31,029 nt of DNA from Ignavibacteriales bacterium (lineage in GTDB: Bacteria > Bacteroidota > Ignavibacteria > UBA10030 > UBA6906). Location of the stretch: positions 1 to 31,029 of the forward strand of contig JBBIRR010000043.1 of the NCBI GenBank assembly GCA_037441705.1, written 5' to 3'. The notes beneath the pieces are model-generated. The model ran no database searches. It worked only from the letters and a program-made list of their open reading frames with translations, and was not told where the DNA came from. Shown here piece after piece: positions 26,579-31,029 of the stretch. Both the position numbers and the translations under genes were made by a program. Position 1 is the first letter of the stretch; each line of letters starts with the position of its first letter.

Positions 26579-27976
26579 ATGGCTGATCGTTCGTTCGATG
26601 TTGTTGTTCTTGGTGGAGGTCCCGGTGGCTACACGGCGGCCATCCGCGCAGCACAGCTCGGCTTCAGCACAGGCATCATCGAAGCCGACAGACTCGGTGG
26701 CGTCTGCCTGAACTGGGGATGCATTCCGACCAAAGCACTGTTGAAGAACGCTGAGATCCTCCATCAGTTCAAGAAAGCGAGCGAGTGGGGGATTTCATAC
26801 GACAATCTGAAGTTCGACTTCGGCAAGATCATCAAGCGTAGCCGCGACATCTCCGACAGGATCTCCAAAGGCGTGGAGTTTTTGATGAAGAAAAATAAGA
26901 TTGATTACATGCCCGGCTACGGCACGCTGTGCGGCGGCAATTCTATCGAAGTGAAGCCGAAGGAAGGTGCCGCGTTCAAAGTCACCGCCAAGCACATCAT
27001 CATCGCCACGGGAGCGCGTGCCCGCTCGCTGCCCGGCGTGACAATCGACCGCAAGCGGATCATCACGAGCACCGAGGCAATGACGTTATCCGAGCAGCCC
27101 GCAGCAATGATTGTGATAGGCGCAGGCGCTATCGGAGTCGAGTTCGCTTACTTCTACAACGCGCTCGGAACCAAAGTCACCCTCGTTGAAATGATGCCCG
27201 GGATCCTGCCGATCGAGGATCGTGAGCTGACGAAGGAGTTGGAGAAGAGTTTCAAGAAGCAGGGCATCGAAATTCTGACCCAAACAAAAGTCGAAAGCGC
27301 ACAGACTTCGACGTCCGGCGTTAAGGTCGTTGTCAGCGGACCGGAGGGGAAGAAGGAGCTGCACGCCGACGTCGCGTTGATGGCAATCGGCGTGCAGGGA
27401 AACGTGGAAGGATTCGGGCTGGAGAAAGTGGGCGTGGAGGTGGAACGGAATCACATCAAAGTGGACACAGACTACCGGACGAACGTGCCGGGCATCTACG
27501 CCATCGGCGACGTGATCGGGCCGCCGTGGCTCGCGCATGTTGCCAGTGCCGAGGGCATTCATTGTGTCGAAGCCATCAAAGGCTTGAATCCTGAACCCAT
27601 CGACTACTCGACGATTCCCGGCTGTACGTACTGTCAGCCGCAGATTGCCAGTGTGGGATTGACGGAAGAGAAGGCGCGAGAAGAAGGATATGAGTTGAGA
27701 ATCGGCAAGTTTCCGTTCCGTCCGTTGGGCAAGGCCATCGCCATCGGTGAAACGGAAGGAATGGTGAAGCTGATTTTCGATGCGAAATACGGCGAGCTGC
27801 TCGGCGCACACATTCTGGGCAGCGAAGCAACCGAGATGATTGCCGAGCTTGCGCTTGCTAAGAAGCTCGAAGCGACGGGCAAGTCCATTTTCCACACCGT
27901 GCATGCTCATCCGACATTGAGCGAAGCAGTGATGGAAGCGGCGGCGGCGGCGTATGGAGAGGCGATAAATATCTGA
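26579..27976 (+). CDS. lpdA: dihydrolipoyl dehydrogenase (E3)
   Basis: GGGPGGY FAD motif, redox-active GGVCLNWGCIPTK, GAGAIGVE NAD motif and C-terminal HAHPTLSE. Confidence 0.97.
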   Translation: MADRSFDVVVLGGGPGGYTAAIRAAQLGFSTGIIEADRLGGVCLNWGCIPTKALLKNAEILHQFKKASEWGISYDNLKFDFGKIIKRSRDISDRISKGVEFLMKKNKIDYMPGYGTLCGGNSIEVKPKEGAAFKVTAKHIIIATGARARSLPGVTIDRKRIITSTEAMTLSEQPAAMIVIGAGAIGVEFAYFYNALGTKVTLVEMMPGILPIEDRELTKELEKSFKKQGIEILTQTKVESAQTSTSGVKVVVSGPEGKKELHADVALMAIGVQGNVEGFGLEKVGVEVERNHIKVDTDYRTNVPGIYAIGDVIGPPWLAHVASAEGIHCVEAIKGLNPEPIDYSTIPGCTYCQPQIASVGLTEEKAREEGYELRIGKFPFRPLGKAIAIGETEGMVKLIFDAKYGELLGAHILGSEATEMIAELALAKKLEATGKSIFHTVHAHPTLSEAVMEAAAAAYGEAINI

Positions 27977-28052
27977 GCCGTGTGGAAACTTCACCAGCAT
28001 GACGTAGTAAGTCAAACGAAATAGGAATCAAATACGTCAAGAGGGATAGGTC

Positions 28053-30158
28053 GTGGCTTCAACAAAAATAGTGAAGAACGCAAGAACAGAGACACGCGAG
28101 CGCAGCGGCAACGGGGAGACGTCTGTTGCCCCGACGGATAACGTTTTCGCTCGTCTCTCGAAGGAACAGCTTCTGGGCGCGTACAGAAACTGTGTCACTG
28201 CCCGTTTGATCGATCAGAAGATTCTTGTCCTGTTGAAGCAGGGCAAAGTCTTCTTTCACATCGGCGGCTCCGGACACGAAGTCGCGCAAACGGCGACTGC
28301 GCTGGCAATGAGGCCCGGCTACGATTGGGCGTATCCGTACTATCGTGATCTCGCGTTCTCTCTGCAGTTCGGGTACACAATTGAAGAGATCATGCTCGAG
28401 GCGCTGCACCGCAAGGGTGGTCCCAGCAGCAACGGCTACGCGATGCCGTTCCACTACGGACACAAGAAGCATCGCATCATTGCGCAATCATCGCCGACCG
28501 GCACACAATTCTTGCAAGCGGTCGGCACCGCCATGGGTGCAGTGAAGGATGGGAAAGACGAAGTCGTGTATGTCTCATCCGGCGAAGGGGCGACAAGTGA
28601 GGGCGAGTTTCATGAGGCGGTGAATTGGGCCTCACGCGGTCGCTTTCCGGTCATCTTCCTCATTCAAAATAACAAGTTTGCGATCTCTGTCCCCGTCAAA
28701 GATCAGCTTGCGGGCGAGAGTGTGTACGGCATGACGAAGGGCTACGAAGGACTGAACCGCTATCGCGTGGATGGCTGCGACTTCAAAGCAATGTATGAGG
28801 TCGTAGCAGAGGCCGTGGCGAACGCGCGTGCCGGCAAAGGACCAGCCGTCATCGAAGCGGATACCGTGCGACTGCTGCCGCATTCATCTTCGGACGATCA
28901 GCGGAAGTATCGCACGGAGGCGGAGTTAGAAGAGGATCGAAAGAAAGATCCGATACCGCGATTCGAAAAACTGCTCGTTGAACTTGGCGTTGCATCCGAA
29001 GGCGATTTCCCTCGCATCAAACAAGAGATTCAGGAACATATCGACCGCGCGGCTGAGTGGGCGGAAGAGCAGCCGCTGCCGCCCGTCGAGTCGTTGGAAC
29101 GTTACGTGTACTCGCCGCGCATCGTCGTTCCGAAGCAAGGCTTTGTCGAGCCGGAGCACAAAGGTCCGAACGTTGTGATGGTTGATGCTATCAACCACGC
29201 TCTCGCGGAAGAGATGGCGCACAACCCGAAAATGCTCATCTACGGAGAAGACGTTGCCGGCAACAAAGGAGGAGTCTTCACGGCAACGAAAGGACTGACG
29301 GCGAAGTTCGGCGAGGAGCGCGTCTTCAATTCGCCGCTCGCGGAAGCGAGCATTGTCGGAACGGCGTTCGGTCTTGCAGTGCGCGGTGATTTCAAGCCGG
29401 TGGTCGAGATTCAGTTTGGCGATTACATCTGGCCTGCCTTCATGCAGATTCGCGATGAGGTCGCGATGCTGCGCTTCCGATCGTACAATCAATGGTCGTG
29501 TCCGATGGTGATCCGTGTTGCTGTCGGCGGCTATATTCACGGCGGACTCTATCACAGTCAGAGCATTGACGGATTCTTCACGCACATTCCCGGCATCCAG
29601 GTCGTGTTTCCCTCCAACGCTGCCGATGCGAAAGGGCTGTTGAAGACCGCGTGCCGCGAAGAGAATCCCGTTCTCTTTTGCGAGCACAAGGGCTTGTATC
29701 GTCAAGGCTTCGCTTCATCGGCCGAACCGGATGAAAACTTCCTTCTTCCGTTCGGTCTTGCCAAAGTCAAGAAACCCGGCGACGATGTCACCATCATTAC
29801 CTGGGGCATGTTGGTGCAACGTTCGCTCGATGCGGCGCGAAAAATCGAGCAGCAATACGGTGCGAGTGTGGAAGTTATCGATTTGCGTACACTGATTCCT
29901 CTGGACAAAGAGACTGTGTTGAACTCTGTTTGGAAAACCGGGAAAGTGCTGATCGTTCACGAAGACACGCTGACGGGCGGCTTCGGGGCGGAAATCTCTG
30001 CCATCATCGCCGCCGAAGCATTCGAGCGACTCGATGCACCGATTCTTCGAGTGGCAGCCAAAGATACGCCCGTGCCGTACGGACCGGAGTTAGAGAATGC
30101 CATGTTGCCGCAGGAGGCGGATGTGGTGCGGGCGCTGGAGAAGTTGGTGAGGTATTAA
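28053..30158 (+). CDS. 2-oxoacid dehydrogenase E1, fused alpha/beta subunits (probably branched-chain 2-oxoisovalerate dehydrogenase)
   Basis: Alpha part has GHE, PYYRD, the TPP motif GEGATSEG...QNN and PHSSSDD. Beta part has GEDV...[21 protein letters not shown] and [14 protein letters not shown] start with GAGGGA upstream. Confidence 0.93.
30095..30158 (+). repeat. direct repeat copy 1 (64 nt, the current 3' end of the E1 gene)
   Basis: GAATGCCATGTTGCCGCAGGAGGCGGATGTGGTGCGGGCGCT followed by GGAGAAGTTGGTGAGGTATTAA. Confidence 0.95.
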
Positions 30159-30187
30159 GTGAAACGCTGTGAATTCCGAGTCCAAAG

Positions 30188-30472
30188 ATGACGCGAGAAG
30201 AGATACAAGCGAAGATTATTGGGTTTTTGAAGCAGCACAACGCCAAACGGATCGGCTTTTTTGGGTCCTTTGCTCGGAAAGAAGATACGCCAACGAGTGA
30301 CATTGATGTGCTTGTGGATTTCGAACGTGGGATTACATACTTCAAGCTGGCTCGCTTGGAGCAAGAGCTGTCTGAACTTGTGGGACGTAAGGTTGATCTG
30401 GTAACGGATGTAGATTTGAACCCCCAATTCATGAATGCGATCCTGCACGACCTTAATGTAATCTACCAGTGA
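30188..30472 (+). CDS. mntA: minimal nucleotidyltransferase antitoxin (MNT, MntA-like)
   Basis: 94 aa with FGSFAR......SDIDVLVDF and the C-terminal L..LVGRKVDLVT. GTGA overlap with the HEPN gene. Confidence 0.9.
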   Translation: MTREEIQAKIIGFLKQHNAKRIGFFGSFARKEDTPTSDIDVLVDFERGITYFKLARLEQELSELVGRKVDLVTDVDLNPQFMNAILHDLNVIYQ

Positions 30473-30804
30473 ACCGTGATATTGAGTATTTGAAGCATAT
30501 CCGTGAAAGTTCTGAACTCGTTTTGCAGTGGATGCAGGGTGTGTCCCTTGAGGATTTCCTGGCTGACATGAAGCTGGTCGATGCCGTGATACGCAGACTT
30601 GAAATTATCGGCGAGGCATCTACGAGAATAGGCTCAACCTTCAAGAGCAAGTTCCCTGAGATCACTTGGCGCGAAATGAAGGCTATGCGCAACAAGCTTA
30701 TTCACGAATACGACAGAGTCAACTTGCGGGCTTCTACTGTTCAAGAAGATTTGCCTAACTTGCGAGATCAGGTAGTTGCAGTGCTCGATAAGCAATCTCG
30801 TTAG
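30469..30804 (+). CDS. hepT: HEPN / DUF86 ribonuclease toxin (HepT-like)
   Basis: AVIRRLEIIGEA, PEITW..MKAM and the HEPN motif RNKLIH followed by EY. Confidence 0.9.
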   Translation: MNRDIEYLKHIRESSELVLQWMQGVSLEDFLADMKLVDAVIRRLEIIGEASTRIGSTFKSKFPEITWREMKAMRNKLIHEYDRVNLRASTVQEDLPNLRDQVVAVLDKQSR

Positions 30805-30812
30805 ACTCGCAG

Positions 30813-30876
30813 GAATGCCATGTTGCCGCAGGAGGCGGATGTGGTGCGGGCGCTCGAAAGGCTGGTACGATACTAA
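30813..30876 (+). repeat. direct repeat copy 2 (displaced, synonymously diverged E1 3' end)
   Basis: The first 42 nt are identical to 30095-30136. The remaining CGAAAGGCTGGTACGATACTAA has 8 mismatches in 22 nt and still encodes ...ALERLVRY*. Confidence 0.95.
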
Positions 30877-30891
30877 TCATTGGAGGTTACG

Positions 30892-31015
30892 ATGAGACTC
30901 AAGGTTGTGTTAGAAGAAAGTGAAGATGGAGGAGGCAATAGAGCTGTACTTAGAGCCTGTCGAGGATGATATAGTCATATCAGAGAAATCTCTTGTTCAG
31001 GAGATTGAAGTGTGA
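30892..31015 (+). pseudogene. hicB: HicB family antitoxin with an internal deletion and frameshift
   Basis: GGAGG SD, then MRLKVVLEESEDGG. In the +1 frame from 30932 the sequence reads EAIELYLEPVEDDIVISEKSLVQEIEV*. The usual middle segment (Y.V.VP.LPGC...G.T.EEAL.N) is absent. Confidence 0.75.
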
Positions 31016-31029
31016 GCAAAGTTCCGAGT
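31012..31029 (+). CDS. probable HicA family toxin, only the first 6 codons in the window (MSKVPS)
   Basis: The GTG overlaps the hicB stop (GTGA). Position and N-terminus are typical of hicB-hicA pairs, but it is too short to confirm. Confidence 0.45.

Follow-up and report, generated by a model that had tools for sequence, protein, structure and literature searches.

How do chromosomal toxin–antitoxin (TA) pairs move when they lack genes for mobility? This long-standing loose end is raised in compact form by a locus of an Ignavibacteriales bacterium (contig JBBIRR010000043.1 of assembly GCA_037441705.1). The window, the whole stretch analyzed, is this contig at its full length of 31,029 nucleotides (nt), here called C43; the assembly (G000) has 92 contigs and 3.83 Mb. 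Near one end of C43, the last 64 nt of a gene for a fused E1 alpha/beta 2-oxoacid dehydrogenase (E1) occur twice, with the pair mntA-hepT between the copies. On balance, we lean toward the reading that mntA-hepT is a selfish type II TA cassette acquired by homology-guided insertion with long target duplication.

The duplicated E1 end and the genes it encloses

The target gene (28053–30158, plus strand) is an open reading frame (ORF) of 701 amino acids (aa) with Pfam matches to E1_dh (4e-67), Transket_pyr (1e-37), and Transketolase_C (5e-38). Its end is one copy of a 64-nt direct repeat. Copy 1 spans 30095–30158 and copy 2 spans 30813–30876, with starts 718 nt apart; repeat search and direct reading confirm this spacing, first given in a preliminary description of the locus. 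The first 42 nt of each copy, the core, have the same letters (30095–30136 and 30813–30854, plus strand; repeat search and alignment), and the last 22 nt differ at eight positions. Tail A (30137–30158, plus strand) holds the last seven codons and TAA of the current E1 gene. Tail B (30855–30876) ends copy 2, which the repeat alignment places on the plus strand as an orphan without a gene body. Comparison of the E1 tail with downstream DNA yields a best local score of 48 versus a shuffle maximum of 14. In the genome, the repeat has two copies, both here, plus the overlapping start of contig C12.

Divergence is confined to the tails, with 0 of 42 differences in the core and 8 of 22 in the tail (Fisher p = 7e-5). 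The copies are unlike at repeat positions 43, 46, 48, 50, 55, 56, 58, and 61, and TAA is aligned in both. In the E1 frame, the codon changes are CTG>CTC, GAG>GAA, AAG>AGG (K>R), TTG>CTG, GTG>GTA, AGG>CGA, and TAT>TAC, amounting to seven synonymous nucleotide changes and one conservative change (K to R), the same counts as in the preliminary description. When eight random substitutions were simulated in 21 coding nt, only 0.05% of 200,000 trials gave at most one amino acid change and no stop codon. The simulation is in line with the earlier proposal that both tails were selected as gene ends, and judging from their codons both appear to have been under purifying selection.

Only mntA and hepT lie between the copies (ORF list and Pfam). 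The first (30188–30472, plus strand; Pfam NTP_transf_2 2e-14, Polbeta 7e-14) starts 29 nt past the E1 stop codon and encodes a putative nucleotidyltransferase antitoxin of 94 aa. The second (30469–30804, plus strand; Pfam HepT-like 6e-22) encodes a putative HEPN-type RNase toxin of 111 aa, and its GTG start overlaps the mntA stop by 4 nt. Gene order, sizes, stop/start overlap, and Pfam families agree with those of MntA-HepT (MNT-HEPN) type II/VII TA systems. GS...DxD in MntA and R-x4-H in HepT, which we take to be the defining motifs, are visible in the translations. Set against known MntA-HepT, the proteins are ordinary and their activity is predicted. A spacer of 8 nt (30805–30812, plus strand) connects the hepT stop to copy 2 in a junction without E1 homology. 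Copy 2 is not the remnant of a decayed full paralog, an origin weighed in the preliminary description, because the DNA 5' of it is hepT and has no similarity to E1.

The absence of a recombinase between the repeats, noted earlier, extends to the whole contig. C43 has no match to the tyrosine recombinase family PF00589, and Pfam comparisons of 16 other large ORFs of the window revealed no mobility families (transposase families were not searched genome-wide). No Rfam family is present in 27800–31029 and no tRNA on contig C12.

The genome is metagenome-assembled and includes a mixture of strains, which raises the alternative that the arrangement is an assembly artifact or that a free 718-bp circle and an empty site were wrongly joined in one contig. 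C43 ends 153 nt after copy 2. In 14 cases across the assembly, two contig ends share exactly 127 nt, indicating a final k of 127; as this exceeds the 64-nt repeat, single k-mers span the full repeat and its flanks. We rejected the E1 repeat as the cause of the contig break, which is instead a bubble formed by an 80-nt indel in hicB, the gene that follows copy 2. The start of contig C12 falls within the core, and its first part overlaps the C43 end, apart from 80 nt missing from the hicB of C43. The deletion (30929/30930; C12 excerpt 1–280) is bounded by short GGAGG repeats, and its junction has a depth of 10 versus about 34–38 for its neighbors (run X1), so it is a minority variant.

Contigs from public data point the same way. 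We placed k=31 contigs of four runs (X1–X4, of which X2 is a separate study) on 29300–31029. Those of X1, probably the source run, separately cover E1 into the core, core to tail A and mntA, mntA through hepT and the spacer into the core, and core to tail B and hicB. The strain in X2 is ~98% identical and contains the junctions hepT-spacer-core, core-tail A-mntA, and core-tail B-hicB with equal coverage (depths 13.7/12/13.7). It has an intact hicB and a C at 30823 while 30105 is T, the one difference between its cores. Two variants of mntA (30183–30307) occur in X1, four positions apart and at depths of 29.6 and 16.4, and in X2 and X3, hepT carries 6 inserted nt after 30732; the cassette is thus polymorphic within and between samples. 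X3, at low depth, has no contig over 30808–30981, a gap that carries no information. In X4 (small share), a short contig has an E1 end like core and tail A, with three differences in 55 nt, followed by unlike sequence, and we draw nothing from it.

An artifact would be compatible with the strain mixture, seen in the mntA depths and the bubble that ends the contig, and with the k=31 contigs, which fit either pairing across the core. These contigs list no joint that skips the 718 nt, although at k=31 the two ways into a 42-nt core cannot be matched with the two ways out. Against an artifact, the junction of hepT with the core cannot stem from mixed loaded and empty strains, cassette depth is about that of the flanks in two studies, and the same layout is found in a Pedobacter chromosome labeled complete (L164). 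The k=127 contig and near-equal depths speak for an integrated form. We therefore regard an artifact or a free circle as very improbable: with k=127 and the hepT-core junction in two independent studies, the arrangement is not a misassembly, and the merging of two strains' alleles contemplated earlier is not borne out by the junctions in X1 and X2.

The E1 site and other bracketed loci

The segment 29300–31029 was searched against 40 related genomes and the DNA 3' of E1 was read in ten relatives, which are other species of the same genus. Two genomes were left out, G010 with a contig that ends inside E1 and G004 with a weak match only. A second copy of the E1 tail is present in 1 of 11 genomes, G000 alone, so the arrangement is not fixed among relatives; a fixed arrangement would have spoken against insertion. 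Empty and differently loaded sites, anticipated in the preliminary description, were both found.

The nearest relative, G007, reveals the direction of change. Its E1 is 86% identical, and the stop codon is followed by a few bases, hicB (75% protein identity), and then the E1alpha gene. One stretch of G007 matches copy 2 and the start of hicB contiguously. This collinearity indicates that tail B is the former gene end; mntA-hepT and tail A are, by this comparison, predicted to have been added in front of it, in keeping with the earlier suggestion that the old end was pushed downstream. In a hand count, G007 differs at 8 of 42 positions of the core, 5 of 22 of tail A, and 7 of 22 of tail B. The tail counts do not single out either tail as the native one. 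Because the G007 core is unlike at 8 of 42 positions, identity of the two copies of the core is not chance conservation.

Other relatives have different cargo at the same site. In G002, mntA-hepT begins 25 nt past the E1 stop and is followed by E1alpha, with no second copy of the tail; relative to the locus in C43, the MntA protein is 66% and the HepT protein 50% identical. Directly 3' of E1, G003 has a 56-nt remnant that resembles hepT. G005 and G006 have a different pair at the E1/E1alpha spacer, consisting of a 146-aa DUF6036/DUF2204 nucleotidyltransferase and a protein of 67–69 aa (in G005, a two-gene unit at excerpt 1792–2383; Pfam). No cargo is present at the E1 site of G009, G001, G008, G011, and G015. 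Within the genus, small TA-like pairs have a hotspot in the E1/E1alpha spacer.

The arrangement at E1 is not a singular oddity but belongs to a recurrent class. The genome was scanned for exact direct repeats (≥24 nt, at distances of 60–5000 nt), and the matches were examined by ORF inspection and alignment. Four more TA pairs are bracketed by locus-unique duplications of a neighboring gene's last 60–105 nt; a scan for such recurring 3' ends had been proposed as a check in the preliminary description. In C54 (14384–15250), the last ~93 nt of a sodium:solute symporter gene occur again 776 nt on, with two mismatches, and enclose a RelB-like/ParE pair. In C65 (12514–13420), the last ~100 nt of an ECF-type sigma factor gene recur 811 nt on around a DUF433/DUF5615 pair. 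The other two enclose HicB/HicA: in C20 (36405–37110), 28 identical nt and a diverged homologous tail of a DsbD-like gene recur 642 nt on, and in C22 (21920–22650), 35 identical nt and a tail of a P-type ATPase gene recur 673 nt on. Each of these four repeats is confined to its own locus, where its only two copies in the genome lie. Uninterrupted identity extends over at most 28–36 nt in the four and 28–42 nt when C43 is included, and divergence in the five repeats is mostly toward the stop codon (codon table). A more sensitive self-BLAST of the genome identified no further case of the TA type; remaining repeats of gene tails were rejected as secretion-signal paralogs, tRNAs, and internal repeats.

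Relatives were also informative for these loci. The cassette of C54 is beside the symporter gene in 0 of 11 genus relatives, and that of C22 is beside the ATPase gene in none of the genus relatives among the matches listed. In G003, G007, G001, and G006, dsbD is followed directly by the downstream gene. The orphan tail in C20, VLDAIEKAAGTLSSQ, fits the C-terminus of DsbD in G003, VLDAIEKASGSLSAK, in sequence and length, and the in-gene tail, VLEALRNAVSE*, is unlike it. This match makes C20 an independent example of an orphaned old end and an incoming working end. Past the orphan DsbD tail, the minus strand encodes a 57-aa fragment (C20 excerpt 2310–2483) resembling a C-terminal sorting domain of type IX secretion. 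Since dsbD abuts the next gene in the four relatives, the fragment counts as additional DNA there.

Such loci could have been formed by site-specific integration, either by a recombinase acting in trans or as remnants of islands that lost their integrase and kept the TA pair. An identical core with a replacement end is typical of integrases that target the 3' ends of genes, and the genome has five matches to PF00589 (one each in C16, C47, and C73 and two in C4). However, none of these is in any of the five TA-bearing contigs. The targets are five different genes as well as an apparently intergenic sequence in G006, their cores have no common motif evident by eye, and the lengths of repeats over all cases vary from about 60 to 185 nt. 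The four other TA loci have no tRNA and match no Rfam family, which argues against attachment sites of the tRNA type. Moreover, every unit is trimmed to its TA pair, with margins of 8–170 nt at all loci, which is unlikely to result from random decay of five islands. We consider site-specific integration a poor candidate.

At the site of the sigma factor gene, the cassette is shared by two species. G003 has the cassette of C65 (79% identity) with its own duplication of 119 nt, in which 9 of 12 differences are synonymous. The copies are 96% alike within G000 and 90% alike within G003, and orthologous copies are less alike. Either repeated homology-guided transfer or gene conversion can produce this pattern. 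Extended to E1, gene conversion would imply an old tandem structure with a homogenized core and tail changes that have since become fixed in the functional gene. In its favor, the copies at the sigma factor site look like products of concerted evolution, and X2 and G000 differ at one position of the core of copy 2. But the E1 duplication is present in none of the ten relatives and hence is young, and the step from 0 of 42 to 8 of 22 differences is sharp. An unselected orphan should also gather changes of the nonsynonymous type, yet just one of eight is, and in C20 it is the orphan and not the functional copy that retains the ancestral-type end. Conversion of an old duplication is accordingly an explanation to which we give little credence.

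A pair of hicAB genes in G006 (contig C37), 75% identical to the pair in C20, is at another locus and is flanked by 85-nt repeats 761 nt apart (reverse complement 1307–1391 and 2068–2152), the last 38 nt of which are identical. These repeats appear intergenic, indicating that duplication is not tied to gene ends as such.

The layout extends beyond the genus. Searches based on HepT provided 80 metagenomic and 69 species-representative loci, which we scored for bracketing, defined as a direct repeat around mntA-hepT seeded by ≥16 exactly matching nt, and compared with controls at shifted positions. In metagenome contigs, 7 of 56 loci are bracketed (24 were dropped for short flanks) versus 31 of 1048 controls (3.0%; binomial p = 0.0013); the seven include two redundant pairs, leaving five distinct cases. 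In species-representative genomes, 8 of 63 are bracketed (6 dropped for short flanks) versus 37 of 1793 controls (2.1%; binomial p = 5e-5), and two of the eight resemble dispersed palindromic repeats. In L164, the last ~110 nt of a gene of 214 aa, through its stop codon, recur 893 nt on with MntA/HepT inside and few differences, of which three synonymous codons were scored. In L170, the last ~120 nt of a YebC-like gene and ~50 nt beyond it recur 1043 nt on, and the last 25 codons have five synonymous and no nonsynonymous differences. Further cases are L190 (~100 nt), L192 (69 nt), L100, and L075. Across all these loci, the layout spans further TA families, targets, and phyla. With five loci in one 3.8-Mb genome and ~1/8 of the MntA-HepT loci in two collections, this mode is frequent.

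How the cassette may have entered

Under homology-guided insertion, the ancestral order would be E1 ending in tail B, then hicBA, and then the next operon. The donor would be DNA from a related lineage with mntA-hepT directly behind its own E1; the arrangement in G002, in which the pair follows E1 without duplication, is a plausible donor layout. Such DNA may have recombined by homology with the 3' end of the resident E1, using host functions and no dedicated integrase, with the 42-nt core as the zone of exchange (identical zones span 28–44 nt across loci). We infer both the type of event, a single crossover or an insertion loop, and the form of the donor DNA. The product would be E1-core-tail A-mntA-hepT-core-tail B-hicBA, with the resident end pushed 718 nt downstream and left as an orphan. 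Tail A probably arrived with the cassette, and since it must encode a working C-terminus, its divergence would be synonymous. We speculate that an active resident hicBA would penalize replacement, enriching for events that add a new cassette. Allelic copies joined over a short identical exchange zone point to homology-guided entry.

In an alternative, homologous recombination is one-sided, and the other end is formed by template switching or an illegitimate join. A recipient strand that ends at the boundary between core and tail would copy the donor tail and cassette and rejoin 42 nt upstream, such that both cores are of the recipient, a true target duplication, and tail A alone is foreign. 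This explains 42 of 42 identities beside 8 of 22 differences more simply, without a mosaic donor. It also accounts for a right junction, hepT stop plus 8 nt and then core, without E1 homology, and for the divergence in C43, C20, C22, and L100, most of which falls on the cassette-facing side of the in-gene copy. A known process of this kind, homology-facilitated illegitimate recombination in naturally transformable bacteria, likewise has a homologous anchor in a conserved gene at one end and a nonhomologous join at the other, but it usually deletes recipient DNA, whereas recipient sequence is duplicated here. Furthermore, rejoining upstream needs a second copy of the chromosome or a replication-based step. 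In C65, L170, G003, and the core of X2, differences flank the identical middle on both sides. Pure duplication of recipient sequence does not predict the two-sided differences of C65, L170, and G003, and in X2 the difference is in the 5' part of the core of copy 2. Two-sided differences fit exchange between diverged alleles better than plain duplication of the recipient, and we consider the one-sided process unlikely.

Several observations weigh against homology-guided insertion. The duplication of E1 is absent from all ten relatives even where cargo is present, so cargo can evidently be acquired at this site without it. The search for a donor was negative: the best relatives of HepT elsewhere in metagenome and genome collections are 46–62% identical, the proteins of the G002 pair are 50% and 66% identical, and a search of metagenome contigs for the exact 42-nt core, with one position degenerate, gave 0 matches. 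No circle, excision product, or empty site of the same species was seen among the k=31 contigs, which cannot separate these. A single exchange needs a 42-of-42 match beside an 8-of-22 mismatch, implying a donor that was already mosaic, and homology of 42–64 nt is short for a RecA-type exchange. Gene conversion fits the sigma factor copies equally well. When all cases are pooled, 28 differing codons are synonymous and 28 nonsynonymous; ~7 of the latter were judged outside the homologous repeat, leaving about 21. The pooled synonymous excess is moderate, and it is strong in C43, in L164, and at the end of L170. Of the insertion proposed in the preliminary description, the direction, the selection on the tails, and the lack of a recombinase hold up, but recombination of a ~0.7-kb unit within the core was not observed.

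Elements with integrases that target the 3' ends of protein-coding genes include prophage e14 or phage 21 in icd and the elements of fda with their cis-mobilizable derivatives. The layout at E1 shares with them an identical core, a replacement end that preserves the protein, and an orphaned old end at the far junction. In contrast, the unit here is 0.65 kb, has no integrase in or near it and no recombinase on its contig, and belongs to a set with repeats of variable length and five different targets that lack an evident common site.

Insertion with long target duplication was reportedly first described by Nobusato et al. in 2000. The preliminary description compared the locus with integrase elements alone; a closer precedent, free of integrases, is provided by restriction–modification (RM) systems. 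In the parts of Furuta, Abe, and Kobayashi 2010 (PMC2853133) drawn on here, RM units of all types are inserted with target duplications of >30 bp and no other mobile-element genes, and the repeat is single at the empty sites of relatives. Repeats are locus-specific and often extend across the stop or start codon of a neighbor, which is kept intact, and cases are mostly in naturally competent species (PMC2853133). No mechanism is stated there; the authors point to DNA breakage as a property in common and hypothesize a virus-like cycle of insertion, amplification via the repeats, and release (PMC2853133). The portion of a 2014 review used here ascribes such insertion to RM systems (Mruk and Kobayashi, PMC3874152), and that of a 2009 review of TA systems cites it for RM systems only (PMC2654758). 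In the literature searched, it is not described for TA pairs; the supplements of PMC2853133, which lie outside that search, may hold non-RM cargo or diverged repeats.

The locus in C43 resembles these insertions in being a compact addiction-type unit with no integrase or transposase and with locus-specific repeats of >30 bp. It has the properties by which the class is delimited in the portion of PMC2853133 considered, namely such repeats, a single copy in relatives, and no mobility gene, but its cargo is MntA/HepT and not an RM system. The locus works like the RM class of insertions with long target duplication, outside its defined cargo. Two differences bear on mechanism. Unlike RM systems, the type II TA cargo cannot cut DNA, so the suggested double-strand breakage is not supplied by the cargo. 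And whereas RM repeats are near-identical, e.g., 44/46 and 47/47 in the examples seen in PMC2853133, the copies here are alleles, with an identical zone and a synonymously diverged tail. The copies here, two lineages' alleles of one functional gene end, hold a mechanistic clue that near-identical repeats do not offer. What is new is the TA cargo and the allelic repeats; the mode itself was known before, in RM systems. Insertion with long target duplication is extended to TA pairs of at least four families, and for annotation, short orphan gene ends beside TA pairs are scars of insertion by which acquisitions can be dated and oriented.

A bolder proposal, which we think improbable, is that TA cassettes are autonomous mobile units that carry the 3' end of a host gene as an "attachment site." The flanking repeats would let homologous recombination of the host loop out a cassette and thread it into the same gene of relatives. 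Each passage would swap the cassette-distal parts of the repeats for host sequence while the adjoining tail stays, and this cassette-borne tail would evolve under selection for an intact host protein. If true, TA systems, RM systems, and small nuclease genes would have in common a life cycle that is free of recombinases and addressed by homology.

Neighboring genes and other small inserts

Other small selfish genes seem to use this mode of insertion too. Two PDDEXK_3 (PD-(D/E)XK) genes in this genome are bracketed by locus-unique repeats, one in C26 (excerpt 1407–2268; 149-nt repeats) and one in C24 (excerpt 1263–1807; 56-nt repeats). The gene in C26 separates E2 from E3 in another operon for a 2-oxoacid dehydrogenase. 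A 94-aa GIY-YIG gene in C59 (excerpt 69–553) was rejected as a case of target duplication, as its flank is a dispersed 42-nt repeat with >20 copies in the genome. In C12 (excerpt 1450–2151), an insertion with a 73-aa ORF without a Pfam match and a 76-aa HNH-endonuclease ORF, for which no target duplication was found, separates the E1alpha and E1beta genes, which abut in G008.

A scan of 29900–31029 for promoters and terminators predicted no sigma-70 promoters and one terminator-like site at chance level; the host promoter type is perhaps not covered by the scan.

Downstream of copy 2, the hicB antitoxin gene (30880–31015, plus strand) is the minority variant identified by comparison with C12, with its frame broken by the 80-nt deletion at 30929/30930. 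The intact gene at the start of C12 encodes 71 aa (Pfam HicB_lk_antitox 8e-14). The first 18 nt of hicA, recognized by eye, follow at 31012–31029 (plus strand) and are truncated by the end of the contig. In C12, hicA (about 260–460 of the excerpt) has, by eye, a stop after ~41 codons with a conserved second half in another frame and looks like a frameshifted toxin gene. With a deletion variant of hicB and a broken hicA, hicBA is now decaying in this population.

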